Assembly: GCA_050246755.1 (NCBI GenBank)
Contig: JBFWVL010000001.1
Coordinates: 1-64,000 of the forward strand
Direction of reading: 5' to 3'
Source of the DNA: Bacteriovoracia bacterium
Lineage (GTDB): Bacteria > Bdellovibrionota > UBA1018 > CAIPTA01
Length of the DNA: 64,000 nucleotides
This document shows, piece after piece, positions 3,626 to 38,743 of the stretch. The position numbers and the translations under genes are program-made. Under the pieces are notes generated by a model. It had not been told where the DNA came from and made no database searches. It saw only the letters and a list, made by a program, of their open reading frames with translations. The first letter of the stretch is position 1. Every line of letters starts with the position of its first letter.

Positions 3626-3643
3626 TTAATTCGTATCAGAATC

Positions 3644-4300: not shown

Positions 4301-4374
4301 GGTGAGCCTCAAATCGTAGTTATAATGCGCCGCGTTGAGATTTATCACCGCTCGTCTTCCGGTGCAAGCGCTAG

Positions 4375-4520
4375 CTGGTCTACTTGATTGTTGTTTTTCG
4401 GGCGATTCGCTCGTGAATTCGCAAACCTAGCTCCAACTGGTATAGATTAGAAACCATTTTAAAAAATTGTCGAAGGACTGCGCGTGGTTAGCCGCTTCCA
4501 TCAACAATCAAGTAGACCAG
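4375..4520. mobile_element. MITE copy 1 (146 bp)
   Basis: Perfect 19-bp TIR CTGGTCTACTTGATTGTTG / CAACAATCAAGTAGACCAG; colinear with 15135-15279 and 55018-55163 in the opposite orientation; TIR shared with the IS at 48551-49530. Confidence 0.85.
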
Positions 4521-4522
4521 GT

Positions 4523-5707: not shown

Positions 5708-5848
5708 CCCCTGATTGACTCCCTAAAAGGTAGAGAGGAAAAATGGAGCGGACAAGCGGATTTACGCAGCATCAGCCGATGACAGACGCTGTCTTTTCCT
5801 GTCAGGATTTGGAGTGGGCGACGGGTATATTTTTACCCAAAGCTTCGG

Positions 5849-6421: not shown

Positions 6422-6510
6422 GATTACCTCTCCCTAATTTTACCCACGGAAATAGAAAGAGACCACTCCTTAAGAGCGGCCTCCCATAATCTAGGTCTTG
6501 GGAAACTAGA

Positions 6511-7740: not shown

Positions 7741-7917
7741 AGCGCCTCCTGGCAACTGGGAACATCCTTGTTAATATAATTTAACAATATTTGACGCTAC
7801 TTGTCAAGTACCGGAAAAGCGCTGGAGATGCAAGGAGATGGCAGCTGGGAGCCTCCCTGAATTCCACACTTTTTCCACCTCCTGGCTATATAATCGAAGA
7901 GTTAAGCAGGAGGATGT

Positions 7918-10130: not shown

Positions 10131-10133
10131 GGC

Positions 10134-12083: not shown

Positions 12084-12304
12084 TTCGATACGATGATGAT
12101 TCTTTCGCAGCTCCGACTGCAGTGCCGAGATCCGGTCATAGTCGTCGGAAAGGAGCTCTTAGTTTACCATGGAAACCAAGGGTCATTTTTTGGGGTTTTC
12201 TGGGCTCATTTTCACCCAAATCAAATATATCGGTAGCTTGAGGCAAAAAACCGCTTCCCAATACCCGAGTAATTTGATATGTTATGCGCCGAAATGAGGT
12301 CTGC

Positions 12305-13027
12305 ATGAAACACGTTCTCTTGGTTTCCGCGATGATGCTTTCCCTTACCACCTTGGCCCAGGCCACCGAACTCCCGGCCGCCGTAGCCGCCGGCTCTCCC
12401 GCCGCGGAAGCAACCGCCGCCCCGGCCCCCGAAGCGGTACCGCTGCCCGCCCCACGCCCCGCTGTCTTAGCCAATCCAAACCAGGCCATTCTCGATCACT
12501 ATCGCAATCTTGATCCCAAAAAAATAATTCCGGGCAAGCTGCTGGCAAAAGCCATCGTGGAATACCATACCCGCTTAAAAGATATTAAGAACCCCCGCTA
12601 CCTGACCGTAATCGACTACAGCCAGCCCTCCACTCAGAAACGTTTTTATATCATCGACATGAAATCGGGCGCCGTATGGAGAACCTACGTGGCCAACGGC
12701 AAAGGCTCCGAAGCGAAAAAAAATGGCCAAGCCACCGCCTTCGGTAACGACAAACGATCGCACCGCTCTTCGGTGGGCGTATTCCTGACCCGCGAAACCT
12801 ACCAAGGCAAGCACGGCCTCTCGCTGAAGCTTTCGGGCCTCTCCTCCACCAACTCGAATGCTCTCTCCCGCGCCATCGTGATCCACGGCGCGAACTACGT
12901 GCAAGATAAAGCCGTGGTGCAAGGCCGCAGCTACGGCTGCCCCGCTTTGCCCATGAAGTATCGCACCATGGTGATCGATATGATCAAGGGAGGAAGCTTG
13001 ATCCTCGCCGCCAGCAGCGTGAAGTAA
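12305..13027 (+). CDS. murein L,D-transpeptidase (YkuD_2-like)
   Basis: RAIVIHGANYV...GRSYGCPA catalytic H/C motif; signal peptide; Ala/Pro linker. Confidence 0.85.
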   Translation: MKHVLLVSAMMLSLTTLAQATELPAAVAAGSPAAEATAAPAPEAVPLPAPRPAVLANPNQAILDHYRNLDPKKIIPGKLLAKAIVEYHTRLKDIKNPRYLTVIDYSQPSTQKRFYIIDMKSGAVWRTYVANGKGSEAKKNGQATAFGNDKRSHRSSVGVFLTRETYQGKHGLSLKLSGLSSTNSNALSRAIVIHGANYVQDKAVVQGRSYGCPALPMKYRTMVIDMIKGGSLILAASSVK

Positions 13028-13090
13028 CCTGACGGGAACAGGTAGCAGACGCAGTTCTCGGCCGGGAATGCGCATGCTACACTTTCCTGC

Positions 13091-15130
13091 ATGAACCCCG
13101 ATAAATCTTCCGCCCTTTTTCGCTTCCAGGAACGCCTTCGCGTGGCGCGCCAGGGCGGACGCAAAGTCGATATCTCCTTCCTGCTCGACGAAGCCAAAGA
13201 GGCCAGAATCCCCGAAGACTTCGTGCGCTGGCTCGAGCAGGTGCTCGTGTGGATCCGGATTTCGGGCGGAAGCGGCACCTCCTCCCAGACCAGCCTCAAA
13301 TTTCTCCTCGCGAAAATCTGCCAAAATCCGGAATGGAAAGCCTCCACCTCGCACCTCCTGCAGCAGCTGCTGCTTCAGGGATCATTCGTGAAACTTTTTT
13401 CCGATACCGGCGTGCATAGCAACTACGCCTTTTTTCACGAAGCCCTCGACCGCCTGGTGCGCGGGCTTTTCCCCGCCTACGGCGATTTATCCAACATGGA
13501 TACCGCGGTGGGGCGGATCTTCAGCCGGGAAGAAGATGCCGAGTGGATTGGGCACCTGCCCCCCGAGCAGCGCGCGCAAATCTTGGAATGCTTTTTTTCC
13601 GACGAGCCCATTCAGCAAAAAATAAAGAATCACCTGATGAGTGACGTGGCCGAGGCCTGCTCTTTCCTTTGCGTGCGCCTCTCGGCCGTAAGCATCCAGC
13701 GCGACATCACCGTGCGCGCGGGAAAAACCCGCGTAGCCGATATTCCGCCGCTCCGCCTGCGGGCGCACATTGAACGCTATTTTGCGGAACTGCTTTCGGG
13801 CCGCAACCGCACCGAGCTCCAGGAAAGCTACGACCATATCAAAACGGAGATCGCGCATTCGCGAAAATACCTTGAAGACGTACGTGCCCATCTAGAGCAA
13901 TACGGAGTGAGCGTCGGGATCGTGTTCAGTCTCGAAACGGCCCATTCCATTCTCGATCGCATCCAGCTTCTGCTGCGCTTCTCGCGCTGGCTTTGTTTTT
14001 CCGAGGGGAACTTCGATCCTTGGCTGTTTTTCGCCGATTTTCTCCGCGCCACTCACGATGAAAACCGCATCACTCCCTTGATTAAGAGCAATTTTCACCT
14101 GCTTTCCCAAAAGATCGTGGAGAAATCCGGCGCCACCGGGGAAAACTATATCACCGGCAACCGCGAGGAATACCGCGCGATGTTTTTTGCCGCGGTGGGC
14201 GGGGGATTCATCACCGCCTTCACTGCGCTGTTCAAATATTTAGGACCGTCCTCGCTCGCCCCCTTCGTGCTCGGCCTCTACGCCGCCTTGAACTATTCCT
14301 CCTGCTTCATCCTCATGCACCACCTCCATTTCAAGCTCGCCACGAAACAGCCCGCAATGACGGCCGCCGCCCTGGCAGAACGCTTACGCCTTCAAGGTGA
14401 AGACCGCCACCTGACGGGTTTCATCGACCTCGTGGCCCGGATCAGCCGCTCCCAGTTCGCCGCGGTGGCGGGAAATATTTTGGCGGTGATTCCCACTGCC
14501 ATCGCCATCGACTGGATCTCCCGCCTATGGCTCGGCCGGTCCGTGCTGGGCGGAGAATACGCCGAGCACGCGCTGGAATCGCTGCATCCGATCGCCACGT
14601 TCACGATCTTCTACGCGGCTCTTACCGGCGTGCTCCTTTGGATCTCGGGCCTATTCGCGGGTTGGGTGGAAAACGCGTTCATCTATTTCCGTATTCCGGT
14701 GGCACTCGAGGGCCATCAGTTTCTCGCCAATTTATTTGGTCCGGAGCGCCTGAACAAGATCGTGCACCGGATTTCCAAGAACCTGTCGGGCTGGACCTCT
14801 TCCATCGCGCTAGGATTTTCGCTGGCCTTCGTGCCGGTAGCCGGCTCCTTCTTCGGCCTTCCCCTCGATGTACGCCACGTCACCCTCAGCACCGGCTCCG
14901 CCAGTTTCGCGATCGCATCGTTGGGCTGGGCGCACGTTAGCGGGCTCATGCTTTTGTTCACCATTGTGGGAATTCTCTTTATTGGAGCCATGAATTTCGG
15001 CGTGAGCTTTTTTCTCGCTCTTTACATTGCGGTGCGCGCCAATAATATTCCGTCCAAGCGTATTCTCGCCATCTTGCGCGCCTGCGGTCGCGAGTTTTTG
15101 CGTCAGCCGCGGAAATTTTTTCTTCCCTAA
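13091..15130 (+). CDS. Gcr-like polytopic membrane protein (family conventionally labelled 'site-specific recombinase')
   Basis: TGENYIT, AAVGGG, LATKQPAMTAA, LPLDVRHVTLSTG motifs; multiple C-terminal TM helices. Confidence 0.8.
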   Translation: MNPDKSSALFRFQERLRVARQGGRKVDISFLLDEAKEARIPEDFVRWLEQVLVWIRISGGSGTSSQTSLKFLLAKICQNPEWKASTSHLLQQLLLQGSFVKLFSDTGVHSNYAFFHEALDRLVRGLFPAYGDLSNMDTAVGRIFSREEDAEWIGHLPPEQRAQILECFFSDEPIQQKIKNHLMSDVAEACSFLCVRLSAVSIQRDITVRAGKTRVADIPPLRLRAHIERYFAELLSGRNRTELQESYDHIKTEIAHSRKYLEDVRAHLEQYGVSVGIVFSLETAHSILDRIQLLLRFSRWLCFSEGNFDPWLFFADFLRATHDENRITPLIKSNFHLLSQKIVEKSGATGENYITGNREEYRAMFFAAVGGGFITAFTALFKYLGPSSLAPFVLGLYAALNYSSCFILMHHLHFKLATKQPAMTAAALAERLRLQGEDRHLTGFIDLVARISRSQFAAVAGNILAVIPTAIAIDWISRLWLGRSVLGGEYAEHALESLHPIATFTIFYAALTGVLLWISGLFAGWVENAFIYFRIPVALEGHQFLANLFGPERLNKIVHRISKNLSGWTSSIALGFSLAFVPVAGSFFGLPLDVRHVTLSTGSASFAIASLGWAHVSGLMLLFTIVGILFIGAMNFGVSFFLALYIAVRANNIPSKRILAILRACGREFLRQPRKFFLP

Positions 15131-15134
15131 AGAC

Positions 15135-15279
15135 CTGGTCTACTTAATTGTTGATGGAAGCCGCTAACCATACGCAGTCATTCGACAAATTTTAAATTGG
15201 TTTCGAATTTATACCACCTAGCGGTAGGCCTTTAAATTCACGAATGAATCGCCGCAAAAACAACAATTAAGTAGGCCAG
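15135..15279. mobile_element. MITE copy 2 (145 bp)
   Basis: TIR CTGGTCTACTTAATTGTTG / CAACAATTAAGTAGGCCAG (18/19); colinear with copies 1 and 3. Confidence 0.85.
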
Positions 15280-15317
15280 CTGGCTCTTCAATAGGACAAT
15301 GAAAGCTCGGAGGGAAC

Positions 15318-16562
15318 GTGAAATCTTTTGTTCAAATCGCGGCCATGGCTTTTCTACTCCTCTCCTCCGCCTCCCACGCCGCCCCTGGCCACCCCCGGGT
15401 TGGCATCGTAGTAATCGACGTGCAAAAATCTTTTTTCGCCGCCGCCGCCAATGAAAATATGGCCGAGGTAACGGCCAATACGAAAAAAGTATTCGAGCTC
15501 GCCAAAAAAAATAAGACGCCCTTCTTTATTACCTACGAGGGAAAGAAAACCGGCGACCACGATATTCCAGAAACCCTTAGGCGCGTACTGCCGAAGCACG
15601 GGAAGTCTTTTATCAAAACCACCTACGCCGCTACCGGCCTCAAGCCCTTCGTGAAGGCCATCAAGGATTCCGGCGTCACTCACCTTGTCGTGCTCGGCTC
15701 CGAAACCGACGTTTGCGTGATGCATACCGTGCTCGGGCTGCGGAAAATGGGCTACCAGGTCTCTTTGCAGAAAGACGCGGTATTTTCTTCCGAGCATAGT
15801 CCTGGCGCCGCTTACCGCCGCATGGAGATGGCCGGCGTGCATATGGCCGATATGCCGGAAGTTGCGAAAATGATGGAGAGCGATACCCCGCCCGCGCCCA
15901 CCGTCCAAAACATCGATACTCTCCTGCAGCCCATGCGCGGCGGAAAACCCAATCTCGCCCTAGTCCTGAATCTATTCGACGAAGCCCATATCAAGGGCAG
16001 CGGCGATTCCTTCAAAGCCCCGAAGCTCGAGCGCATCCGCGAGCTGCTCCTGCTCGCCGAGTGGACCAAAATTCCGGTCTACGTGAAGGGCGTCAGTCCC
16101 CACGCCCCTCTGCCCGAATCCCTGAAAAAAATCATGCCCAAGGATGCGCTCCGTATTTTTGAGCAGAAAAAATGGCATTCCTTCGCGGATTTTCCGCCCG
16201 GTGGGTTCCAGCAGGTGCTGCTGGCGGGGAGTGAGCAGAATCTAAACGAAGTAGTTGGGGCACTCGGAAAAGAGCGCCAGCTGTTTCTCACCGAAGATTC
16301 CCTGCTTTCCTCGGCCAGGAAACCTATTTTGGAAACTGAGGAACTAGTTCCCCTCACCTATAAGTCTCTCTACTTTGGCCTGACCCAATCAATTTCCCAA
16401 AAAGAGTGGCCGGTGAAAGAGTGGATCGACCGCGACCCCACTTTTTATCCGCTGATGTCTCCGGCTGAGCAGTTGCTGCCGATGAAGCCCGCGAAACGCG
16501 CGGCTCCACCCCGTACTAGTTCCGGGGAACCCGCTCTTCTTCCCGCTACCAGCGCCCAATAA
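15318..16562 (+). CDS. secreted isochorismatase/cysteine hydrolase family protein with C-terminal extension
   Basis: VIDVQ, IKTT, GSETDVCV (D-K-C triad); signal peptide; GGAGGG RBS. Confidence 0.75.
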   Translation: MKSFVQIAAMAFLLLSSASHAAPGHPRVGIVVIDVQKSFFAAAANENMAEVTANTKKVFELAKKNKTPFFITYEGKKTGDHDIPETLRRVLPKHGKSFIKTTYAATGLKPFVKAIKDSGVTHLVVLGSETDVCVMHTVLGLRKMGYQVSLQKDAVFSSEHSPGAAYRRMEMAGVHMADMPEVAKMMESDTPPAPTVQNIDTLLQPMRGGKPNLALVLNLFDEAHIKGSGDSFKAPKLERIRELLLLAEWTKIPVYVKGVSPHAPLPESLKKIMPKDALRIFEQKKWHSFADFPPGGFQQVLLAGSEQNLNEVVGALGKERQLFLTEDSLLSSARKPILETEELVPLTYKSLYFGLTQSISQKEWPVKEWIDRDPTFYPLMSPAEQLLPMKPAKRAAPPRTSSGEPALLPATSAQ

Positions 16563-26602: not shown

Positions 26603-27574
26603 CTATTTTTGACAAATCGTATAATCGGAACTCAAGCTGTCGTTCCTGGGATTAAATCTCTTAGTAGAAAACTCCGCGCCGAGAATAACCATTCTCCCAC
26701 GGCCATTCATGCCGCGATAAGAGGCCGAGATAATGGCCTCCGGCCCGAGCGCTACCGCGATAGGGTTTCCGAACTGCCAGTACTTACTCCGAATCAAGCT
26801 GTCGTTCTTAAACTCCCCCACTTTGAGGCCGAGACTTCCGCAAACGGACTCCGCCCTTTCCGGCTGATCCACTCCGTCCAAATTATCGTCTACCTTCACG
26901 AATAACCATTTTTCCGGGTAGCTAAAGGTCCAGAAATTTTGCAATCCCGCCCTCCCCCGAAGCGCCGCATATTCGGGCTCCTTCAGCTGAAGCAGCGCCG
27001 CCGCGCTGAGGTAAGAATTAAAGTACCGGGCACGAATCGAATTCACCTGGCCGCGCTCCAGCGTGTCGGTATAAATGATCTCGTGGAGCATCAGCGAAGC
27101 CTGGTCGCGCACCGACATGCGATTCCAGATAGTGGCGTCGATCAGGTAGAATCTCTCCTCGGGAAATTGCGGTTTACGCTGGATCGCCACCTGCCGCAGC
27201 TCGCAGTTTCTCGGAATCACGATGTGATTAGAATCGGGCACGTCCACGAGATTCGCGTCGGGCACGAAACCGGCATTCTCCCGGAAGGCATCCACTTTCT
27301 TGCCATAATTTTTGGCGGACACAGGGTCGAATTTTGCCATGCGCGCCAAAATATTTTTCGCCGTCTCCTCGGCCGTGGCTCCGGTTAAAGACTGGTCGAA
27401 CTCAAGCCCGCGCAGCACGCGCGCTTCGTAGAGATCGAGCATCTCCACGCTGCCATCGGCGCAGACCAGGGCGTCTCCGCCATTCCCGACTCCATCTCCT
27501 CCGGCCTGCAACGGCGCCAATCCCGCACGCGCCTCAAAGCTTGCTAGCAATAGTAAGCAAAAGAATAGTTTCAT
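26603..27574 (-). CDS. secreted GGxxVGNGG-motif protein
   Basis: Signal peptide then AGGDGVGNGGDALVC, LDLYE, LMLHEIIY. Confidence 0.8.
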   Translation of the reverse strand: MKLFFCLLLLASFEARAGLAPLQAGGDGVGNGGDALVCADGSVEMLDLYEARVLRGLEFDQSLTGATAEETAKNILARMAKFDPVSAKNYGKKVDAFRENAGFVPDANLVDVPDSNHIVIPRNCELRQVAIQRKPQFPEERFYLIDATIWNRMSVRDQASLMLHEIIYTDTLERGQVNSIRARYFNSYLSAAALLQLKEPEYAALRGRAGLQNFWTFSYPEKWLFVKVDDNLDGVDQPERAESVCGSLGLKVGEFKNDSLIRSKYWQFGNPIAVALGPEAIISASYRGMNGRGRMVILGAEFSTKRFNPRNDSLSSDYTICQK

Positions 27575-28338
27575 TTTTGCGCTCCTTTGGAATCTTTATT
27601 TTCTAAAATCACCGGGAACAACTGAATGCCGAGCGTATACACTTCGTCGGCGTCGCCGTTTTCGAGCAGGCCGATCAGCTCGTCCTGAAAGCGCCGGATC
27701 GCCGCCTTCGCCTTGGGCAAGTTCTTCGTGTTCACGGCCGCCGTCTTGGTAAAAAACTCCCGCCGCTCCACGGCCACATTTTCCAATGCCAGCTCCGCGC
27801 GCTTTAGGTTCTGCCGGTGGTGGTTACGGATCGCGTTCGAGGGAATATCGTTCGTGGTGCTCAAAGGCTTCGAAGTACGCCGTAAGCGCCCCCGAGACAC
27901 TTCCAGCAACTCCATCCTTACCAGCCGCTCCAAGGCCGTAGCGGCCACGATCACCGGAATCCCTAGCCGCTTCGAGATCCAGGCCGGTTCGGCCTTATTG
28001 GAAATTTTCGCCAAATTTAGGATCGCGAAATAATACCAGTCGGCGATCAAGCGAAATTCATCTTCCCTAAGCAGCCGCGGGCGGGCCTGATCGTCGCTCA
28101 CGCGGGGCGAATCCCAGCGGAGCTTCTCCACTTCCATCGGGGAAAGCCCGAGCTTTGCGGCCACCAGCTCGAGATTTTTGCGCGAGAGCTGGCGCTTGCC
28201 GGCAATCGTGAGGCTCAGCGAAGCGGGGCTCACGCTCAGATCCCGGGCCATGGCCCGCAAGGAATACCCGGGATTCGCCGCCTGGCAATCCGCCAGGTGC
28301 TGCCTCAAGATCTCGGTGATCGTTGTTTTCTCGCCCAT
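27571..28338 (-). CDS. TIGR02147/DUF4423-type XRE-like HTH regulator
   Basis: NPGYSLRAMARDLSVSPASLS, IADWYYFAIL, AIRNHHRQNL, VYTLGIQLFP. Confidence 0.85.
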   Translation of the reverse strand: MGEKTTITEILRQHLADCQAANPGYSLRAMARDLSVSPASLSLTIAGKRQLSRKNLELVAAKLGLSPMEVEKLRWDSPRVSDDQARPRLLREDEFRLIADWYYFAILNLAKISNKAEPAWISKRLGIPVIVAATALERLVRMELLEVSRGRLRRTSKPLSTTNDIPSNAIRNHHRQNLKRAELALENVAVERREFFTKTAAVNTKNLPKAKAAIRRFQDELIGLLENGDADEVYTLGIQLFPVILENKDSKGAQK

Positions 28339-28690: not shown

Positions 28691-29209
28691 TTAGCGGGTG
28701 CGGAAAATTTTAAGTGAATGCGCGGTTTGATCCTGGACAAGGAAAGCCATTTGTTCGTTATTATTTGCGGCAGCGTCTATTAGTCTTCCAGATATCCCAA
28801 ATTGATTGTCATAGGGTCCCTGAACCAATACCTTATCGACGGTGTCATAAACAAACAGTCCCTTGCCTCCACCCCCTGGGTTCGGACCGCTACCTTCGTA
28901 GGTGCCCAAAAAGTATATGTTGCCTGAATCACTTAGGCGGAAGCCTCTACAAAAATCTGCAGAAGCGCCAACGGTACTCCTGAGATCTTGCTCGACGCCG
29001 TCTTTGTCAATGAACCATGGGCGCGAGCCGTGGCAAATAGCCATCTCCCCTTTGGAGTTGAGTTCAAATTCCAGGCTGCCAATAAAGTGATTTTGGAGCC
29101 AGAGCCCATTAGTGAATTCTTTTGGAGCCCTGGCGAAAGCTTGACTGATTAAGAAAATTTGCGAGATTAGGCAAAACGATACCGTAAGCAGCTTTAGCTG
29201 TAATTTCAT
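28691..29209 (-). CDS. hypothetical secreted beta-rich protein
   Basis: AGGA RBS; signal peptide ending AFA. Confidence 0.7.
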   Translation of the reverse strand: MKLQLKLLTVSFCLISQIFLISQAFARAPKEFTNGLWLQNHFIGSLEFELNSKGEMAICHGSRPWFIDKDGVEQDLRSTVGASADFCRGFRLSDSGNIYFLGTYEGSGPNPGGGGKGLFVYDTVDKVLVQGPYDNQFGISGRLIDAAANNNEQMAFLVQDQTAHSLKIFRTR

Positions 29210-29221
29210 TGGTAGTTCCTT

Positions 29222-29965
29222 TTATCGTATAAATTGAATTGAGTTAATGATTGCAGCCGCTTCACTAGCCGTTTGCCCATCGTGTTTAGAAAGTACGCCA
29301 GGACTAGCTTTAACTACGTTAGTCGAAACCACCACCATTCGAAGTCCTCCGCTGATGGAAACAGCTTCATGCTGAAACATGCAAGTATCCGGAAAACTTT
29401 GAATAAGAGCGCGCACAGAAAACTGAATTCCGGACAGCATCGAATTTTCGCCAAAAGCAAATGGGATCCTTCGATAACGAACACCCAATTCAACATGGTC
29501 CACGTTAGGCTCTTTGCCGGTATATTTAGACCAATCGCCTTCTTTATTCGGTCTCACACGAATTATGATTTTACTGCACCATTCTCCACCCACCTCAGAG
29601 CCCGGTTTACCCGCAACTTTGCAAGCATCTGTAACTGGCATTAAATTTAAGGTGTTATCGGGATATTCTTCCTCTTCATCCGAAGGGACTACTTTCCACG
29701 ATTTTGGAAATTTTACCTTGGCACCGTAGCTTGCACCCTTAGGTGACAGCGTCGCAGATTCGGTTAGAGCGCTATCTGGTGTAGGCTCTTTAACTTTCCA
29801 GAAGTAATTAGGAAATTTTCCAGACAGTGATTGTGTGTCCGGGCAAGCTGCGACAGGTAGCGATTCCTTTTTCTGCTTTGATGCAGAGAAAGCGGCATTG
29901 GGAGATGCCATGCCGACGCTCAGCGTCACGAGCGCTGGCAGCATTAGTAAAATATGCTTCTGCAT
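29222..29965 (-). CDS. hypothetical secreted protein
   Basis: Probable start MQKHILLMLPALVTLSVGMA; ORF open further upstream to 30052. Confidence 0.65.
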   Translation of the reverse strand: MQKHILLMLPALVTLSVGMASPNAAFSASKQKKESLPVAACPDTQSLSGKFPNYFWKVKEPTPDSALTESATLSPKGASYGAKVKFPKSWKVVPSDEEEEYPDNTLNLMPVTDACKVAGKPGSEVGGEWCSKIIIRVRPNKEGDWSKYTGKEPNVDHVELGVRYRRIPFAFGENSMLSGIQFSVRALIQSFPDTCMFQHEAVSISGGLRMVVVSTNVVKASPGVLSKHDGQTASEAAAIINSIQFIR

Positions 29966-30219
29966 CGAAGTCACAAACTTTACACTGGTGGAATTGGAGT
30001 AGAAATCGCAGCGAGAAAAACGCATCCGTGGTCCTCTAAGGGCCGAATCCAATCAGCCTTAAATATACAATACGAGAAGGCTAATGGCCGTCGTCCACTA
30101 GCTGCAAGTACTTTTCCGTTACACTAAAATTTATATCAACCACAGTCACGCTAAAACAGTAATCGCATTTTTTGCAAACTAAATTCTTACCTATTTGATT
30201 TTTTATTTGGGAGCTATGC

Positions 30220-30713
30220 TGACCAGCCGGGAGTTTTTGTACCACTCCTAGAGTTTAACTGCGGCCAAAACTCTTCGGAAATCTTGCTCGAAAGCTAAAG
30301 GGGCCGGTGGCCTGTAGCCAAGCGCGCTGTGCGGCCTCTTCGTATTGTAATGCCTTCTCCATTGTTCAATTATAACCTTCGCCTCCAGTAGCGAGAAGAA
30401 GATTTCTCCGTTCAAAAACTCATAGCGCATCTTCCCGTTAAATGACTCGCAATAACCATTCTCCCACGGGCTTCCCGGAAAAATAAATAGTGGCTTTACA
30501 TCCAACGCCTTCAGCCACCAACGCAATTTCGTTGCCACAAATTCAGGGCCGTTATCAGAACGAATATGCTTTGGGACTCCTCGCTTTAGAAATAAATCGG
30601 CCAGCGCCTGAATCACATCTCCCGAACGAATTCTTCTCGCTACGATCGAGGCCAAACATTCTCGTGAGTATTCGTCGATGATATTTAAAATTCTGAATTT
30701 TCTTCCGTCATGC
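30220..30713 (-). pseudogene. truncated IS3-family element (integrase core + IR only)
   Basis: DGRKFRILNIIDEYSREC, RSDNGPEF, SPWENGYCESFN, RPHSALGY; end TGACCAGCCGGGAG at 30220; cut off by the neighbouring IS at 30714. Confidence 0.85.
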
Positions 30714-31958
30714 TGACCATCCTCCCAAAAACCTAGCCATTTGAAAGCTCTAAAAAACCGGGTATAACACGCCCGGCCGTAAGGCCGGGAGACCTGGGAG
30801 TAGAGCAAATGAAGAAGTCGAATTTCAAAGAAGAGGACATCGTAAGAATTCTTGGCCAAGCCGCAGCGGGAAAAGTACGGCCGAGATCTGCCGGGAAAAT
30901 AAAATCTCAAGCTACACATTTTATTCGTGGCGCAGGAAATTTTCCGGCATGGATGTGAAGGAAGCCAAGCGCCTGCGTGATCTCGAAAGCGAGAACGCGC
31001 GTTTGAAGCGCCTGGTGGCCGATCAGGCCCTCGACATCACGGTTTTAAAGGACGCGCTTGGAAAAAAGTAAGAAGGCCTTCTGAAAGAAAAACCTTGGCC
31101 CGTGCCGCGATTGAGCGGTTCGGGCTGAAACATCGACGGGCCTGCCGGATTTTTGAGATCAATCGCTTCACCTGGCACTACACGCCGCAACCTGATCGCA
31201 ACGTGAAGCTGCGCCAGCGAATGCGTGAGCTCGCGGCACAGAATCCGGTTTACGGCCACCCAATGCTTTTTTATCTCGTAAGGCGCGAGTGGCCGTACCC
31301 GATCAATCACAAGCGCACGGAGAAAATCTATAGGGAAGAAGGCCTTTCACTCAGGAGAAAGCGGAAGCGAAAAAAGTGGCGGCAATTGCGCCTGGCGCTT
31401 CCGCCCGCGATGGATCAAGAATACGTTTGGTCGATGGATTTTGTGCACGATCGCCTGGCCAATAATCAGCAGCTGAAGTTTCTCACGATGGTGGATCACG
31501 CTACGCGAACTGTGCCCGATCTTTACGCTGCCAAATCCATCAAAGGAACCGACGTAGTGGGAGTTCTCGAGCGGCTTAAGCTGCAAAACCGCAAGCCGAA
31601 AATCTTGGTCGTGGACAATGGGCCCGAGTTTCGCTCCAAAGCGCTTCAAGAATGGACTACGAGTAACCAGGTTCGCCTTCCCTTCATCGAACCGGGCAAG
31701 CCTTACCAAAACGGCTTCATCGAATCGTTCAACGGGAGATTTCGCGCCGAATGCCTCGATCGAAATGTATTCGTGAACGTGGATGCGGCAAGGATTTTTG
31801 CGCGAGGATGGAAGAATGAATACGAATCACAGCGGCCACACTCAAGTTTGCGAGGCCTTACGCCGAATGAATTTGCAGAACGAACAATGCGTGCTAAACA
31901 CGCCAACCAAAGCCCCGGTCTAGAGCTAATAAGTGGCTAGGAACAAGGGGGATGGTCA
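30714..31958 (+). mobile_element. IS3-family element, orfA inactivated
   Basis: IRs TGACCATCCTCCC...CCTAGCCA / TGGCTAGG...GGGGGATGGTCA; orfA 30809-31071 has an extra frameshift near 30870; A6G slippery site at 31062-31068; orfB to 31940 with WSMDF, DNGPEF, ESFN. Confidence 0.9.
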
Positions 31959-32005
31959 GGACGAAAACAACAGAAGACCTAAAAGAACTGCCCTCATTTT
32001 TATCA

Positions 32006-32518
32006 CTATGGCCGCTTCTTTTTCTTGGAGCATTGAGCAATCTCTAAAACCTCGTCCATGCTCTTTCCTTGAGAATATGCTTCGATTGCAGAAATTCTAC
32101 AGCGAATATAAGACGACTCGCCTTTAATACGATCTGGATAAGGCAATATACCGAAAGATCCACTTTCAACGTTGGCCAAGTTTCCCGAAGAGTTCATGAG
32201 GAACATTATAAGAAACGAGCCTACATTTTCTATGCTCGAAGGTGCATCCTTTTTATTTCCATTACGCTTGCTATGAAAGTAGGCAAAGCGTTGATTGTTT
32301 TTTTCTCCCTTAAAACTTCTAACTACCTCAAACTCTACACGCGTATCTGCTCCATTCCCATTTACAGAAGGTAGCCTTTCTACTTGCTTTACCTTTCCAA
32401 CAAAAATATTGTCGGATTTTTCGAGACTATCTTTAAGAGACATAACCGGTACTTCGCCCGTTGTGGCAAAAGCGAGACTGGAAACTATTAATAAAAGGCC
32501 TACGCCCACTTTAGTCAC
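32006..32518 (-). CDS. small secreted TIMP/NTR-like (OB-fold) protein, paralog 1
   Basis: Signal peptide; LEKSDNIFVGKV...FEVVRSFKG. Confidence 0.7.
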   Translation of the reverse strand: MTKVGVGLLLIVSSLAFATTGEVPVMSLKDSLEKSDNIFVGKVKQVERLPSVNGNGADTRVEFEVVRSFKGEKNNQRFAYFHSKRNGNKKDAPSSIENVGSFLIMFLMNSSGNLANVESGSFGILPYPDRIKGESSYIRCRISAIEAYSQGKSMDEVLEIAQCSKKKKRP

Positions 32519-33036
32519 TACGGCCGCTTCTTCTTTTTGTAACAGTAGGAAATCTCTAAAACCTCATCCATGCTTTTTTTCTGTGAATACGCCTCTAATG
32601 CCGAGATGGCACATCGCAGAGAGCTACTAAATTCTCCAGCAGCATCAGGGAAAGGTGGAATAAGAGTTGAACCGCTCTCGGTATTTACACGCCCCCCTAA
32701 AGATCCATTAGTGAAAATAATAAAGAAAGATCCAACATTCTCAATTGAAACGGGAGCATCCTTTTCATTGCCACTACGGGTACTATAAAAATATACGACC
32801 TGTGGGTTTTTCTTTTTTCCCTTGAAGCTTTTAATCACTTCGATCTCGGCGCGCATATCCGAACCATCTGCTTTTAGCGAAGACAATTTCTCGACTTTCT
32901 TTACTTTGCCAATAAAGATGTCGTCGGACTTCTCAAGCCTGTCTTTAAGGGGCATCACCGGAATTTCTCCCGTTGTGGCAAGAGCCAAACCAGAGAAAAT
33001 CAATGAAATGCAAAGAAATACCGTTATTCTACCCAT
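32518..33036 (-). CDS. small secreted TIMP/NTR-like protein, paralog 2
   Basis: LEKSDDIFIGKV...IEVIKSFKG; close tandem paralog of 32006-32518. Confidence 0.7.
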   Translation of the reverse strand: MGRITVFLCISLIFSGLALATTGEIPVMPLKDRLEKSDDIFIGKVKKVEKLSSLKADGSDMRAEIEVIKSFKGKKKNPQVVYFYSTRSGNEKDAPVSIENVGSFFIIFTNGSLGGRVNTESGSTLIPPFPDAAGEFSSSLRCAISALEAYSQKKSMDEVLEISYCYKKKKRP

Positions 33037-33592
33037 ACTGGAATCTCCATAAAGGTTCCTACTTCACGCTGCAACGAAACAAGCTTTTCATTCAGCAACT
33101 GAATTCTATTAATTGTATCCGCGATCAAAGCGTTAAGTCGCTCTATTTCTTCCGGATCAGTCTCTAATTTTAGCTGCCGTTCGTAAGCATTTTTCCTAGC
33201 TTCTTCTTCGTTAATGGCCGCCGTAAACCCACTTGCCGCACGTTTATTCCGAATATACGTGTGAGCACGCCAATTATGTATGCCCGGGCTTAAGCGTATA
33301 GAGTTTGCTCGCCACCGACTACCGGGTGCGTCTTCTAACGTCTTTTGCGACTGACCGTCAAGCTTAAGGGAAACAACGAATTCAAGCTCTTGGTTCTCAG
33401 GAAAATTAATTGCGTGCGCAACGAGTTGCGATCGTTCACCCGTTGCATAAGAATATTTATCCAGAGCGACTTCAATAAAAGCATTTCGCGGATTTGGAAT
33501 TATTTCCATCAAGGCTTGCCGTTTCGCTAAAACAGAATCGATTACTTGAAGCACGGCTTCTCTAGTAAATTCCAGCGGCGTAGTCGGTTGAT
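33024..33592 (-). pseudogene. 5'-truncated homolog of 36095-37051 (Ig-like + coiled coil)
   Basis: Frame stays open upstream of GTG 33554 (HQPTTPLEFTREAVL, cf. EPLEYEQEQVL) up to the tRNA-end repeat at 33593. Confidence 0.7.
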
Positions 33593-33604
33593 GTGGTGCT
33601 CACA
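33593..33604 (-). repeat. 12-bp copy of the tRNA-Leu 3' end (att-like scar)
   Basis: GTGGTGCTCACA identical to 37628-37639 and 37334-37345, same orientation. Confidence 0.65.
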
Positions 33605-33775
33605 ATTTACTCTTCGGTGAATCTTTTGCGCTTCATATCTTGCCTTTCTTTTTTTCAAGAAAAGAAGACTTTGTCACGCCGCTTCGAACATTTACTTTGG
33701 TACAGTTTCACCCACCAACGTCAAATGGAGCTAAAAATTTCATTCATTATTCTTAAGTGACCGATAAACTAACGG

Positions 33776-34234
33776 CTATGGCTTAATGCTTTTCAGCTTT
33801 TTAAGTTCTTCCCCGACATCACTAAATTTAATATTCCCACCGCCCATCGCTTGAGAAGTATAATTCCTATTGTTCAATTTTTTTGCATAGAAAAGAATTT
33901 CAGACTTATTCTTTGCTGCTCCTCGCATGCTATTGCCAGTATCGGGATTACAAACATCAAAAGAATCTTTAGGCTTACGATAGAAAACATCAACCATACT
34001 GCCTGACTTGCCTTTGCCTTTTAAAATAATCGTGACTTTTACTTTAACTTTTCTACTAAACTCAGGGGTCTTATCTGTTGTGTCTACATCTTCGGTAGGA
34101 ACGCCCACAAAAATAAAATCGGCGCTTTTAAAGCGCTCTTCAAGAGTGGGCATAGGAAATGTGCAAGTTAATCCAAATGCAGTGTTAGAAAAAACCAGCC
34201 AAATCGCACAAATTAGTGGAGCTAAAAATTTCAT
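33776..34234 (-). CDS. small secreted TIMP/NTR-like protein, paralog 3
   Basis: Signal peptide; TCTFPMPTLEERFKSADFIFVG...VKVKVTIILKG. Confidence 0.72.
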   Translation of the reverse strand: MKFLAPLICAIWLVFSNTAFGLTCTFPMPTLEERFKSADFIFVGVPTEDVDTTDKTPEFSRKVKVKVTIILKGKGKSGSMVDVFYRKPKDSFDVCNPDTGNSMRGAAKNKSEILFYAKKLNNRNYTSQAMGGGNIKFSDVGEELKKLKSIKP

Positions 34235-34299
34235 TCGTTGTTCCCTGCTAGTTTACGATTAAATCGACATTAATAAGACTACCAACAACAGTGCGATTT

Positions 34300-35535
34300 T
34301 GACCGGCTCCCCAAAACTCTACCAAAACCAATGTTAGTTTTCGGGCCTCAAACAGCCTTCTTCTGGGATATTTTTTCCAACCACTCCGCCGGCGCAAGAT
34401 TTCCTAGCGAACGATGTGGCCTCCAATTATTGTATTCGATTCTCCAATTTTCGATAACCTCTTTTGCCTCGTCTAAACTTAAAAACGTATTTGCGTTTAA
34501 GCATTCATCCCGAAGCCTTCCGTTAAAGCTGTCGATAAATGCGTTTTCCGTCGGCTTACCAGGTCGGATGAAGTGGATTTTCACGCTATTTTCAAATGCC
34601 CAGCGGTCTAATTCCTTTGAGGCGAACTCCGTTCCGTTATCCACAATCAGCGTCGCGGGCTTCGATCCTAGCTTCGCCAGAGCCGACAACACTTCCGTTA
34701 CTGCGCTCGAAGTCCACCCAGCCCTCGCCTCGAGCCGGGGGCTAACTCTGCTAAAGCTATCTACTATCGTTAAAATCCGAAATTTCTTTCCATCAATTGT
34801 CTGATCATGCACAAAGTCCATGCTCCAGCATTCGTTTGGAGCTGTTGGTTGTTCGGGTTTCACGCGCTTTGCTGCAGAGATTTTCTTGCGGCGCTTAGTC
34901 TTCACGCAGAGGCCTTCTTCTTTATATAGCCTTCGAAGTCTTTTTAAATTCATTTTGATGCCTTGCCTTGCCATCAGCACATGAATTCTCCGATATCCGT
35001 ATCTTGGACGTGCTTCTGCTAAATCTCGTATCTTGATTTTTAGATCCGACTCATCTTTTCTTACCGACCGATAGCGGTGGCCTGAGCGATCTATTTGCGC
35101 GAGCCCGCAGGCGCGCCTTTGGCTCGTATTAAAGGCATGGAGAAGGAATTCAACTATCTTTCTCCTCTTAGCGGGCGTTAGAACTTTTTTCTCAAGACCT
35201 CTTGAAGCATCTGCTTGTCGAGCATTAGATCTGCCACGATCGCTTTTAATTTTCGGTTCTCTTCTTCCACCTGGCGCATGCGCCGAAGCTCGGAAACATC
35301 CATCCCATGAAATTTCTTCTTCCAGCGATGAAAAGTGACTTCCGTAATTCCTAGCTTGCGACAAACCTCTTTGATCGGAGTACCTGACTCCGCTTCGCGA
35401 AGCGTCCGCACGATCTGCTCTTCCGAAAAATTCTTTCTGGGCATTCATTCCTCCTCCTTTTTTCGTATCAGGAGAAGGCCGCTTGGAGCGCCGCTTCTTA
35501 CATGAATTTTGGCTTAGTTTCTGGGGCTACCGTCA
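34300..35535 (-). mobile_element. IS3-family element, apparently intact
   Basis: IRs TGACGGTAGCCCCAGAAAC / TGACCGGCTCCCCAAAAC; orfA 35444-35178; A6G -1 frameshift site at 35184-35190; orfB to 34348 with WSMDF, DNGTEF, RPHRSLG. Confidence 0.92.
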
Positions 35536-35562
35536 AAATTTGTTATACTCTCATCGGTTTAG

Positions 35563-36105
35563 TTATAGGCGAAGCAAACCGGGAATTGATTCTAGGCAAG
35601 CCCTTTTTTCGCTACTCTTCATTTTTTCGCATTCTTTTTTCCGCTCTTCCGCTTGGCGCTTTCTAACTTCTATAAACCGCCGACCAAGCTCCTCGTCCGT
35701 ACCTGGCGTTTTTGTTACTTCATCAAAAATTTCAATATCTCTTACAGCATCAATAACGGGTAACGGGAAACTTTGTCGGTACGGTTCACTCTTCCCTCTA
35801 ATGGAAAATAAGTAGTCTTTTCCTATCTCTGGAATAAACTTAGGACCTCGATTTCTCACATAAACCGTGAGTTGAATACCCGGCTCACCCCGATAGACTT
35901 TGCCTACCCTTACGGTGACCTTGTGATCCCTCTCATATGCATCAAATTTACTTAAATCTAAAGAATCAACTCGCCCCACAAAAACAAATGTACTCTTTAA
36001 AAAATCTTTCCCTGTTCCAGGAATCTCTTCAGCCTTCGCCCAAATTGGGCTAGAAGAACTCACGATAAGAAATATGAATAGGGAAAAAACCGACTTAGTT
36101 AACAA
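35563..36105 (-). CDS. small secreted TIMP/NTR-like protein, paralog 4
   Basis: Probable TTG start at 36105 overlapping the upstream stop; FLKSTFVFVGRV...VRVGKVYRG...IGKDYLF. Confidence 0.65.
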   Translation of the reverse strand: MLTKSVFSLFIFLIVSSSSPIWAKAEEIPGTGKDFLKSTFVFVGRVDSLDLSKFDAYERDHKVTVRVGKVYRGEPGIQLTVYVRNRGPKFIPEIGKDYLFSIRGKSEPYRQSFPLPVIDAVRDIEIFDEVTKTPGTDEELGRRFIEVRKRQAEERKKECEKMKSSEKRACLESIPGLLRL

Positions 36106-37051
36106 AAATTTGATTAATTGCTTCGACGGATACAAGAGTCCTCCCAGCATTCAGTTGAATTTTTAGATCTTGAATTCTATTTAAAAGCATTATGTTCCTA
36201 TCAGTAATTATACCAATTTCTTGAGGATCTGTCTCGCGCTCCAGTCTCTTATTATTTGCCAGCACTTCGCCCTCAGATGCCACTATTCCTTGTTCTATAC
36301 TTTTTGCCCATCTGGAATTTTGCACATAGGCGCGAACTTCCCAAATATGGCTTCCCAGCGAAAGTGGAATACTTTTAGCCCCATAAATCCCAGAACTAAC
36401 CGCTTCAATTTTTAGGGGCGATCCATCAAAGTATGATTCCAAAAAATATTCTTGCTCCGGATTAGTCAAACTAGAAAGTACTCGCGCGCTTAAGTTTACC
36501 CTCTCTCCAACAGAAAAATTTTGCTTATTTGCAGAAAGACCGAATAATTTTTTTCTTTGATTTAGCAAAATTCCGGCAAGAACGGCCTTTATTTCACCGA
36601 GATTAAATTCAGATAAAACTTGTTCTTGCTCGTACTCTAAAGGCTCTATTTTAGAAGTTTGAACTGTATTATTCCGGATATATTTTTTGAGCTCATTTAG
36701 TTGCTTATAAGCAACGTCCCACTGATTCTTATCAAGATTTTGTTTGGCTAAATCAAGATTTGCGAGCATCGTCTCACGTCGCGCAGGTCCATTATTCGTA
36801 AACGCACGCTCAGGAAGATTTTTAATAGCAGTACGAAGAATCCGATAAATTACTGACTCTGAGTAAACTTTTATACCATTTTTAAATATCTGAAACCGTA
36901 CAATGCTTGGATCGTCAATCACCTGAACGGCAAAAGGTATCTCTTCACTACTCGCTAAACGATCCTCAGATAGGAACACAAAATAAACTAATCCGGCAAT
37001 ATCTTTTTTGGAGGCTAAAAGAGATTTAATATTCGTCCGAACTGGCTGCAT
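36095..37051 (-). CDS. hypothetical protein (helical bundle + Ig-like + coiled coil); 5' end probably eroded
   Basis: 318-aa ORF homologous to 33024-33592; upstream in-frame hydrophobic stretch IFFGIFLAALVA suggests a damaged signal peptide. Confidence 0.65.
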   Translation of the reverse strand: MQPVRTNIKSLLASKKDIAGLVYFVFLSEDRLASSEEIPFAVQVIDDPSIVRFQIFKNGIKVYSESVIYRILRTAIKNLPERAFTNNGPARRETMLANLDLAKQNLDKNQWDVAYKQLNELKKYIRNNTVQTSKIEPLEYEQEQVLSEFNLGEIKAVLAGILLNQRKKLFGLSANKQNFSVGERVNLSARVLSSLTNPEQEYFLESYFDGSPLKIEAVSSGIYGAKSIPLSLGSHIWEVRAYVQNSRWAKSIEQGIVASEGEVLANNKRLERETDPQEIGIITDRNIMLLNRIQDLKIQLNAGRTLVSVEAINQIFVN

Positions 37052-37239
37052 TGCAACTAATGCGGCGAGAAATATACCGAAAAAAATTTACTTTTTTTCC
37101 CGTGAGAAATGATGATTTCTCGCTAGGCAGAGTGGCTGGTGTTTTTTCTAAAGAAACGAAGAAAAGACCGCACGCATTAAACTCGATGCGGCGCAATTTT
37201 TCTTACACGGTGGAAGGCGGCGGTCTCCGGTCTTTTGCT

Positions 37240-37652
37240 CGCGTTCGAATTTCAGCGAACCGAGTCTCAGAAATCCCCAAATCTCCAAAGTTGAGGAGAG
37301 CGACGAAGGATTTGGGGATTTTCGGATTTCTGAGTGGTGCTCACAGAGGGACTCGCCCCACTACAGTCGAGTCTCCTGACTCTCCTTGCGTGGGCTCCCC
37401 TACGTCGCTAAGAAAAGCCTCCTGCTTTTCTTCCCCGCGCTAAATCGCCTTGCGATTCAGCGCAGGTCGCTCCTCCGCGTTCGAGTCCCGAAAATACCAA
37501 GTCTCAAACGAATAGAATTGCCCAAAGTCGAGGCGACGAGAGAGCGCAGCCGTGAGACGGGCTACTGCCCGTCGGAACGGGGCGCGAGCGAAGGCAACGA
37601 TGGATTTGGGCAATTCTATTCGTTTGAGTGGTGCTCACAGAGGGACTCGAAC
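37240..37652 (-). repeat. tRNA-anchored tandem repeat: 25-bp tRNA 3'-end duplication plus 24-bp hairpins
   Basis: TGAGTGGTGCTCACAGAGGGACTCG at 37331-37355 and 37625-37649; IR arms 37503-37526/37605-37628 (24/24) and 37266-37289/37311-37334 (21/24). Confidence 0.85.
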
Positions 37653-37713
37653 CCCCACACCTTGCGGCACTAGCTCCTAAGGCTAGCGTGTCTACCAATT
37701 CCACCATGTGAGC
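37629..37713 (-). tRNA. tRNA-Leu (anticodon TAG)
   Basis: GCTCACATGGTGGAATTGGTAGACACGCTAGCCTTAGGAGCTAGTGCCGCAAGGTGTGGGGGTTCGAGTCCCTCTGTGAGCACCA; 85 nt, long variable arm, encoded CCA. Confidence 0.96.
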
Positions 37714-37726
37714 AAACAGAAAATAG

Positions 37727-38742
37727 TTATAGCGTGCCGAGCTCTTTCGCCACCAAATGAGAATAGTGGCAAGCCGCGTAGTGGTTGCTTACTTTCTCCT
37801 CGAGGCGTGGAACGTCGGTTTTGCAATTTTCGCGGGCCATCGGGCAGCGCGGATGGAACGGGCATCCGGGCGGCACGTTGATGGGGCTCGGCACATCGCC
37901 CTGGAGCAGGATGCGCTGGGGGCGGCCCTTGGGATCCGGCATGGGGATCGCGGAAAAGAGCGCGCGGGTATAAGGATGCTTGGGATCTTTGTAAAGGTCC
38001 GCGGCGGTGGCGATCTCCACCACTTTGCCCAAATACATCACGGCCACCCGGGTAGAGATATGCTCCACCACTTTGAGGTCGTGGGCGATGAAGAGGTAGG
38101 TAAGCTTCAGCTCCTTCTGCAAATCCTGCAGGAGGTTGATGATCTGGGCCTGAATGGAAACGTCGAGCGCGGAAACGGGCTCGTCGCACACGATGAATTC
38201 GGGCTCCACGGCGAGGGCGCGCGCGATGCAGATGCGCTGGCGCTGGCCGCCGGAGAATTCATGGGGGTAGCGGTTCACGGCTTCGGCGCGGAGGCCGCAG
38301 AGCTCGAGGAGCTTCAGCACGCGCTTATTCACTTCGGCGCCTTTGGCGAGGCCGTGGATCTTGATGGGCTCGGCGATGATATTACCCACCGTCATGCGCG
38401 GGTTCAGCGAGGCGAAGGGATCCTGGAAAATGATCTGCATCTTGCGGCGGATGAGGCGGAGCTCTTCGGCGCCAAAACCGAGCACGTTTTGCCCGTTGAA
38501 GTAAACGTCGCCCGAGGTGGGCTCGATGAGGCGGAGGATGCAGCGGCCGAGGGTGGATTTCCCGCAGCCGGATTCGCCCACGAGGCCGAGGGTTTCCCCG
38601 CGCTTGATGGCGAAGCTCACGCCCTGGATGGCTTGCACGGCGGCCACTTCACGGCCGAGGAGCCCGCCCTTGATGGGGAACTTCTTGACCAAATTATTTA
38701 CCACGAGGAGGCCGTCGTTTGGATTCACGATGGTTGGCTGCA

Positions 38743-38743
<1 letters not shown>
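37727..38743 (-). CDS. oppF: oligopeptide ABC transporter ATPase
   Basis: [21 protein letters not shown]-terminal GCPFHPRC. Confidence 0.92.

Follow-up and report, generated by a model that had tools for sequence, protein, structure and literature searches.

A folded repeat unit behind tRNA-Leu in a Bdellovibrionota genome belongs to a tRNA-trailing family with the layout of the tRNA-linked repeats of Escherichia coli

The window, a stretch of 64,000 nucleotides from a Bacteriovoracia bacterium (contig JBFWVL010000001.1, positions 1 to 64,000), carries a tRNA-Leu(TAG) gene that starts 13 nt after the stop codon of an oppF-like ABC ATPase gene (37727-38743; identified by Pfam on the upstream ORF). 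A complete repeat unit and, in tandem with it, a truncated one follow the tRNA (Table 1). As read on the tRNA-sense strand, units of this kind share a general plan of spacer (S), antisense segment (a'), core and tail copy (b). The spacer is variable, with a length of 45-140 nt, and is A-rich or contains a terminator-like hairpin or a long palindrome. Segment a' is antisense to G53, the T-loop and part of the 3' strand of the T-stem. The core consists of a junction, GCGGAG..GACC, the hairpins P2-P5 and then GTAGTGGG, while b corresponds to the tRNA from C56 to A76 and pairs with a' as helix P1.

Table 1. Features of the tRNA-Leu(TAG) locus, numbered along the window
Feature	Position	Strand	Basis or remark
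tRNA-Leu(TAG) gene	37629-37713	(-)	ARAGORN; Rfam RF00005, 59.3 bits
Unit 1 (full, 294 nt)	37335-37628	(-)	Starts at the base after the CCA of tRNA-Leu(TAG)
Spacer S of unit 1	37503-37628	(-)	Nested palindromic repeat: 24-bp arms, conserved 78-nt apical domain
a' of unit 1, GGGACTCGAAC	37479-37489	(-)	Reverse complement of tRNA positions 53-63
Conserved core of unit 1	37356-37478	(-)	Alignment A1, RNAalifold, model R1 (164.8 bits), covariation
Core junction GCGGAGGAGCGACC	within 37356-37478	(-)	Opens the unit-1 core
Hairpin P2	37433-37468	(-)	Unit-1 core
Hairpin P3, loop CAGGAG	37410-37433	(-)	Unit-1 core
Hairpin P4, loop GGAG	37389-37404	(-)	Unit-1 core
Hairpin P5, loop AGGA	37369-37382	(-)	Unit-1 core
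GTAGTGGGG	37356-37364	(-)	Core end, after P5
b of unit 1	37335-37355	(-)	Exact 21-nt copy of the tRNA-Leu 3' end, C56-A76 with CCA
Unit 2 (truncated)	37225-37334	(-)	In tandem with unit 1
Spacer of unit 2	37266-37334	(-)	Degenerate palindrome copy; apical domain down to 21 nt
Cut-off start of unit 2	37225-37265	(-)	Reading and comparison with the family consensus
GCGAGCAAAAGACC of unit 2	37229-37242	(-)	Family likeness stops beyond, at the edge of the low-GC block

The earlier note, made from the letters of the window, had described a perfect 24-bp stem with a 78-nt loop directly after the tRNA CCA. This was confirmed as inverted repeat I1, with arms at 37605-37628 and 37503-37526 that are 100% paired and have 78 nt between them. 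A 13-nt linker separates the palindrome from a'. As the note had also claimed, a' (37489-37479) is the exact reverse complement of GTTCGAGTCCC in tRNA-Leu. It covers G53, the T-loop and the first 3 nt of the T-stem 3' strand, and eight of its nucleotides pair with b, closing the core as P1. Segment b is identical over 21 nt to 37629-37649 of the tRNA. The reported 25-bp direct repeat of the tRNA 3' end was found 294 nt downstream, exact over 25 nt (CGAGTCCC...CACCACTCA) and extending to 35 nt at 89% (D1). With up to three mismatches, a 20-mer from this repeat is found twice in the window compared with 0.00 expected from 100 shuffles. The "further small hairpins" of the note had been underrated, as 37369-37468 proved to be conserved family core. 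The 294-nt unit 1 folds at -146.4 kcal/mol compared with -106.5 +/- 5.3 kcal/mol for 200 shuffles (z = -7.5). An opposite-strand tRNA-like gene was also considered and was dropped on reading, since its T-stem does not pair.

In unit 2, the second 24-bp stem was present as described, with 21 of 24 positions paired (I2, arms at 37311-37334 and 37266-37289, 88% complementary, 21 nt between), and is followed by ATTCGAACGCG at 37250-37240. The a'-like ATTCGAAC at 37243-37250 does not match the tRNA-Leu T-loop. A further direct repeat, D2 (22 nt, 82%), has the same 294-nt spacing as D1, so the two hairpins of the window are homologous copies in register, the second being a palindrome copy with a deleted apex. 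Unit 2 stops near 37225, on the border of a low-GC block.

This block occupies about 29-37 kb of the window at a GC content of 0.38-0.46. It contains three IS3-type transposase ORFs with rve domains, together with small ORFs that have no family match. Ten ORFs between 26191 and 37051 were all without an NCBIfam match, as were 10 of the 17 window ORFs with Pfam. It had been proposed that the repeats may be the capture site of a cassette island. No third copy of the tRNA-Leu repeat bounding the low-GC block was found in the window, which leaves that role without support; unit 2 is simply truncated, and the transposases inside the block are of the IS3 type. Downstream of tRNA-Leu(TAG) the DNA is variable among relatives. 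In genome G002 and in metagenome contigs L174 and L175, tRNA-Leu(TAG) has an identical 3' end with only plain hairpins behind it and thus represents an empty site. The G001 locus has a related-looking but different arrangement and repeat without an R1 match, and G007 has, at this tRNA, an island of 12 kb that includes a serine recombinase. Exact-pattern scans for the window's tRNA-Leu 3' end returned two genome and two metagenome contigs, none of them from the window's species.

The 24-bp hairpin is a palindromic repeat in its own right, which is nested in the spacer and lies outside the tRNA-matched module. In relatives it also occurs away from the units, both immediately after tRNA-Phe and tRNA-Ala and at other intergenic sites. 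The note had treated the stems as part of a tRNA-anchored unit; they are present and paired, but the same palindrome is also found without the module. An nhmmer search of the window's genome returned only two full palindrome copies, both inside the two full units of that genome (at tRNA-Leu and tRNA-Val). The apical domain of about 78 nt is conserved, while the arms vary between copies and stay complementary, with uninterrupted arms of 17-24 bp in seven of ten copies. Where the palindrome lies behind a tRNA, its arms include the tRNA CCA. Complementarity of the arms could be maintained by selection at the RNA level or by quasi-palindrome template-switch correction, a known mechanism. A MITE was considered for this hairpin and rejected, as it is the interior and not the arms that the copies have in common and, by reading, there is no short flanking duplication. 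Repeats of the REP/BIME type are dispersed non-coding palindromes of intergenic DNA, often at the 3' ends of transcription units. The hairpin repeat resembles them in being dispersed, non-coding, palindromic and intergenic; unlike them, it keeps its apex and changes its arms, which take in the tRNA CCA.

The units of the window belong to a non-coding folded family that trails many tRNA genes in Bdellovibrionota. A second unit in the same genome lies directly after tRNA-Val(TAC), with 76% identity (E = 3e-44); its b is the Val tail and its a' the complement of the Val T-arm. Covariance model R1 was built from an alignment of 14 units (A1). Searching the window's genome with R1 gave exactly two full units, the next match having E = 0.08. 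Units were found in 24 of 61 related genomes (E <= 1e-3) and, with stricter filters (E <= 1e-5), in 19 of 151 genomes sampled across the phylum. Copy number within the window's own genus ranges from 0 to 20 units per genome.

A tRNA on the same strand lies within 600 nt upstream of 29 of 44 units, which come from 35 sources; 23 match their own upstream tRNA over the last 18 nt (at most two mismatches), and 37 end in CCA. Twelve kinds of tRNA host these units; in related genomes the hosts include Trp, Ser (four anticodons), Pro, Met, Cys, Arg, Leu(GAG) and Gln. Units without a nearby tRNA are mostly located at contig ends or behind inserted islands. Tandem arrays are common at related loci, with periods of 220-294 nt, and contain two or three units at the G009 and G005 loci. 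No unit follows the tRNA-Val of G002. A discrete, non-coding structured unit recurring at tRNA 3' ends, as the earlier note had envisaged, was therefore found, each with the 3' end of its own tRNA.

The fold was assessed on 42 distinct units. Standard pairs occupy 91.9% of pair cells compared with 68.7% after shuffling of partners, pairing falls to 38-52% when partners are slid by 1-3 columns, and 27 of 30 pairs show double changes; these covariation figures overstate independence, as the alignment was fitted to the structure of the model and the genomes are kin. RNAalifold on A1 showed changes on both sides in 21 of 30 pairs. The earlier claim that the structure is under selection holds in that pairing is kept through compensatory change (model R1, 42 units). 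The conservation and strong co-variation of the fold speak for selection on the RNA itself. Moreover, G-U or U-G pairs fill 84 cells and A-C or C-A 15 (65 and 5 without P1), indicating that the fold is read on the tRNA-sense strand, as RNA. This asymmetry is not expected from a duplex or cruciform DNA site. Several described RNA types were also considered and set aside, there being no Rfam match at E <= 1: known ribozymes, GOLLD/ROOL-type large RNAs, ωRNA and bridge RNA.

In all 23 tRNA-matched units, the complementary run of a' is longer with the tRNA than with the unit's own b. Segment a' is also complementary to G53, T54 and T55 of the tRNA, positions that are absent from b. This excess complementarity is not required by the closing helix and gives a hint of an origin at the DNA level, through inverted duplication.

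The sequence context was also considered for expression. A scan of 37000-37900, weak either way, found no promoter-like site. No terminator-like site was found between tRNA-Leu and the unit, the sole one in 37000-37900 being located inside oppF on the other strand. Some spacers of related units, such as those at Ser(TGA) and Trp in G005, have terminator-like hairpins between tRNA and core, so that expression there would need read-through of the kind described for E. coli rrnB. In B. bacteriovorus strain s4, tRNA-Gln(TTG) is followed by an A-rich spacer, the unit and then a hairpin with a T-run. RNA runs were searched with the B. bacteriovorus homologue, the share being at most 0.22 in every run. 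Two RNA-library contigs of a Bdellovibrio relative, "organism A", join tRNA-Gln to the 3' part of a unit: X8 (347 nt, depth 45.6) and X12 (2153 nt). They are assembled contigs of another organism with possible DNA content, and strand, ends and level are not readable from them. In both, the stretch between the tRNA and the 3' part is diverged but equally long; this middle part has no cover at 85% likeness because the strain differs there. The bridging contigs lend weak support to co-transcription of tRNA and unit.

Taken together, the unit is probably a tRNA-trailer RNA of the type of the E. coli tRNA-linked repeats (TLRs), co-transcribed with its tRNA and spreading by recombination in the T-loop. 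Transcription of tRNA-Leu would run through spacer S into the unit, and the cut that matures the tRNA 3' end would free the trailer. The trailer is predicted to fold with the a'/b closing helix around four co-varying hairpins. As the unit closes at its 3' end with a copy of the C56-A76 tail, the enzymes that trim tRNA 3' ends would also set the end of the module. An RNase E/G homologue is encoded in the window's genome, and the terminal repeat of the E. coli TLRs has been proposed as an RNase E signal (PMC8144298). Among the mechanisms that the earlier note had listed, an RNA released by tRNA processing fits best, given the G-U/A-C asymmetry, the bridging contigs and the E. coli analogues as described in PMC8144298. 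For the folded core, a CsrA-type protein on the GGA-containing loops would be one candidate partner, not strongly favored.

The distribution of the units bears on how they would reach new tRNA genes. Unit cores cluster by genome and not by tRNA. At four G009 loci, the cores share 81-93% identity among themselves, compared with at most 67% to units of other genomes; in G000, the Leu and Val cores are 81% identical. The a' segments of the four G009 loci differ by 1-2 nt while each b is tRNA-specific, indicating that b is remade for each target and that a' travels with the unit and is adapted later. At the G009 Pro and "x" loci, a' complements little beyond the universal T-loop. Junction variant GGGTTGAATCC is common to the G009 Pro and "x" units, and GGGTCGAGCCC to both Ser units, which points to a crossover in the T-loop or T-stem. 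The orthologous tRNA-Val locus in G005 has the same flank after b as the window's genome and a different spacer, and its b follows the two acceptor-stem differences of that species.

Units would multiply in tandem and be lost precisely, which is seen as an outcome and not as the work of a given enzyme. New tRNA genes would be reached by recombination or template switching inside the near-universal T-loop. Microhomology recombination or template switching of this kind would give the observed product. In G009, the tRNAs Ser GCT, Ser GGA and Pro GGG are intact beside near-identical units, and the fourth locus (L028) showed no tRNA. An element with a foreign tail that crossed over in the T-loop would break its target tRNA, so a classical integrase crossover fits poorly.

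An integrase-based origin is nevertheless the first alternative to be weighed. The unit would then be a non-autonomous CIME-like DNA element, inserted by T-loop crossover through a tyrosine integrase acting in trans or a nuclease acting on folded single strands; the hairpins and inverted T-arm would be DNA recognition structures and the RNA incidental. Direct repeats from T-loop to CCA, as in the sites of T-loop-class integrases, tandem arrays, patchy presence among close relatives and the junction variants common to several loci would all be accommodated, and b-S-a' forms an inverted repeat that mimics a duplex T-arm. In addition, the L028 array directly follows a Phage_integrase gene. That gene is the only integrase at 26 related loci, where scanning of the flanks (about 1.5 kb; 52 of 67 ORFs, 15 being left out as shadow ORFs) returned one Phage_integrase and one ISL3 transposase. 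No recombinase was found in or beside the window unit among the 17 window ORFs scanned with Pfam. Thus, of the features of a CIME, the empty site was found and an integrase in or next to the segment was not. The intact G009 tRNAs, which T-loop crossover would have broken, and the excess of G-U over A-C (84 vs 15) also count against this origin, which we consider unlikely. The recombinase or HUH-nuclease substrate suggested in the earlier note finds no such gene at the unit.

A second alternative concerns function. The unit might be a CsrA-titrating small RNA in which GGA hairpin loops bind CsrA, coupling tRNA transcription to CsrA activity. CsrA titration has been proposed for the 5S-linked E. 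coli TLRs RrA/B/F, and RrB binds CsrA in vitro via GGA motifs, as described in PMC8144298. The window unit holds eight GGA motifs within 160 nt, of which the P3, P4 and P5 loops account for three, and a csrA gene is present in the window's genome (90.9 bits). The aligned P3, P4 and P5 loops read CAGGAG, GGAG and CAGGAG; the MFE fold closes one extra P5 pair, giving an AGGA tetraloop. GGA lies in the P3 loop of 27 and the P5 loop of 28 of the 42 units. However, the loops follow CNNGAN and not a strict GGA, with 14-15 of the 42 units having no GGA in P3 or P5, and GGA enrichment is modest (259 vs 225 +/- 10 for dinucleotide shuffles of the 42 units). The Rfam CsrB/Rsm models gave no match on the unit, and the 19 tRNA-operon TLRs of E. 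coli scored below 0.01 in a CsrA-sRNA predictor (PMC8144298). Titration of CsrA is accordingly regarded as rather improbable.

Two further explanations carry little weight. By analogy, the unit might be a retro-copied element, in which the antisense strand would act as a primer-binding-like site, the tRNA would prime reverse transcription and tandem cDNA would be fixed at the tRNA. The complement of a retroviral primer binding site resembles b in length and position (18-22 nt, CCA into the T-loop), and the unit holds sense (b) and antisense (a') copies of the tRNA tail and forms tandem arrays. Nevertheless, no reverse transcriptase was found among the scanned window ORFs or related flanks, the structure is selected on the tRNA-sense strand, and the argument is one of analogy only, so that this origin appears very improbable. 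A private att scar, that is, an attL/attR remnant of a decayed island plus the tRNA's own terminator hairpin, would suit a low-GC block with IS3-type transposase genes that begins right after the repeats, at a tRNA 3' end, a classic island site (as with the 12-kb island of G007 at the same tRNA), but it is refuted by the family, whose 160-nt core is kept at other tRNAs of the window's genome and phylum-wide, with compensatory changes, and by the missing third repeat at the block, and it retains hardly any likelihood.

Beyond the window, TLR-type modules might form a widespread class of self-propagating RNA genes that colonize tRNA genes by a templated T-loop step, in which the C56-A76 tail of the target is copied afresh as b and a' then evolves. 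We regard this broader proposal as doubtful. If true, the modules would be a prokaryotic counterpart of tRNA-anchored mobile elements with no need of a dedicated recombinase, and the folded RNA could in turn influence tRNA maturation, for instance by serving as a decoy or guide in 3'-end or RNase P processing. The many independent tRNA targets within single genomes show b remade for each target and a' inherited. A family member is located in a cultivable, genetically tractable species, at the tRNA-Gln locus of B. bacteriovorus. The family also carries a warning for annotation, namely that duplications of tRNA 3' ends are not always att sites of islands.

Among known systems, CIMEs and T-loop integrative elements share with the units the direct repeat from T-loop to 3' end, the regenerated tRNA, tandem accretion and polymorphic presence. 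Integration sublocations in tRNA genes, T-loop crossover among them, were reportedly classified by Williams in 2002. Compared with CIMEs, the Bdellovibrionota unit is small (about 230-290 bp), gene-less and without an associated integrase; its core is a co-varying RNA-type fold with strand asymmetry, and one core lineage is found at several different tRNAs. A literature search on non-autonomous tRNA-targeting mini-elements yielded eukaryotic or unrelated cases only. Like the unit, the E. coli 3'ETS-leuZ is an RNA from a tRNA 3' external spacer that is freed by tRNA processing; as described in PMC8144298, it is a short base-pairing sponge with no tRNA-tail copy, antisense T-arm segment or tandem units.

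The closest likeness in layout is to the TLRs of E. coli, of which 22 are described at ten loci, in arrays of one to five units each (PMC8144298). They have been known since 1978 (Egan & Landy 1978; Rudd 1999; as cited in PMC8144298), without a function or origin, and the Bdellovibrionota family now offers a co-varying fold. The E. coli set includes the 178-bp tyrT/tyrV repeats (rttR, RtT RNA, Rfam RF00391) and the 5S-linked sRNAs RrA/RrB/RrF, which, in the account of PMC8144298, are transcribed with the precursor and processed to a defined RNA. By the definition given there, the 3' 18-19 bp of a TLR are identical to the 3' end of the upstream tRNA. Reading of the tyrT/tyrV locus showed that its tandem units end in 19 nt of tRNA-Tyr and open with GGGGAAGGAT, whose reverse complement, ATCCTTCCCC, lies in the tRNA-Tyr tail. 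In literature searches on TLRs, RtT/tyrT and Bdellovibrio small RNAs and repeats, no such modules outside E. coli came to light.

The likeness does not extend to sequence. RF00391 (gathering score 45 bits) gave no match at E <= 1 in 36000-38500 or at four related loci (L002, L029, L031, L149), and the positive control, L158, returned four E. coli units at 133-137 bits. In the reverse direction, R1 with filters off scored the TLRs of the E. coli tyrT locus at about 9 bits, below the 13 bits of the tRNAs themselves, so homology detectable at this level is rejected. The earlier note had named a match to a described tRNA-linked repeat family among the findings that would speak against its interpretation; the E. 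coli TLRs are such a family in architecture but not in sequence. The Bdellovibrionota units belong to the TLR class by layout, a' included, and not to the RtT sequence family.

In both groups, one unit or a short tandem array comes directly after a tRNA and has its orientation, and each unit ends in the last 18-22 nt of that tRNA, with a spacer, sometimes holding a terminator, between tRNA and unit. The window unit has this position and orientation, a tRNA-identical end of 21 nt, and one full and one truncated unit in tandem. Moreover, the E. coli tyrT units share with it an antisense start, complementary to the T-loop and T-stem, that is able to pair with the terminal copy. The Bdellovibrionota core, at about 125 nt with four hairpins, is longer than that of the E. 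coli TLRs, and b has 21 nt compared with 18-19 nt. Unlike the TLRs of E. coli, the window unit has a second palindromic repeat nested in its spacer, and the Bdellovibrionota family extends across a phylum and at least 12 kinds of tRNA.

At the tRNA-Leu(TAG) gene of the window, only 13 nt separate the stop codon of an oppF-like gene from the start of the tRNA (37714-37727). A scan of 37000-37900 revealed no promoter-like site, and the opp operon and tRNA-Leu may share transcription. Positions 29000-37200 form a low-GC block (GC 0.38-0.46 compared with approximately 0.57 in the surroundings) containing three transposase ORFs. The small minus-strand ORFs arranged in a row within this block had no match in Pfam or NCBIfam; two of them, at 32518-33036 and 32006-32518, are clearly paralogous, and their N-termini resemble signal peptides. 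Just past the block, 27571-28338 on the minus strand encodes an HTH protein with DUF4423 (E = 5e-47).

Transposase ORFs inside the low-GC block
Feature	Position	Strand
IS3-family transposase ORF	34348-35448	-
IS3-family transposase ORF	31095-31940	+
IS3-family transposase ORF	30248-30919	-

The tRNA-Leu(TAG) locus of two related genomes is arranged differently. In L013 (G001; 1000-1500, minus strand), an A/T-rich hairpin of 21 bp, with the CCA as part of it, lies behind the tRNA and is followed by GGGACTCGAA, with an inverted 19-nt copy of the tRNA 3' end about 400 nt further on. No direct copy of the 3' end was seen in this interval, and the arrangement was not matched by R1, the model built from 14 aligned units. 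It may represent a further TLR-like variant. In L026 (G007), a 12-kb island (3633-15972) separates the tRNA from a displaced unit, whose b element, the copy of the tRNA tail, ends early, after GTCGAGTCTATC. The island encodes a Replic_Relax protein and, at 9854-11764, a serine recombinase of the large type.

In G009, L028 carries three near-identical units with a period of 226 (1154-2865). Immediately ahead of them are a displaced fragment of a tRNA tail and a gene for a tyrosine integrase, but the 3-kb locus contains no tRNA. The antisense element a' of these units matches their own b over GGATTC and no further. In L034, also of G009, unit 3 (1167-1351) of the tRNA-Ser(GGA) array has a tRNA-tail-like fragment (…GAGTCCTCTCTCTCCGCCA) inserted in the P3 loop, as if produced by crossover within the core.

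The palindromic repeat of the spacer (window 37503-37628; also L159 and L160 of G008) adjoins the tRNA, incorporating the CCA within its arms and carrying TGG at the distal end. With arms rich in A on the 5' side and in T on the 3' side, the repeat resembles a stretched version of a bidirectional terminator with a conserved insert within the loop.
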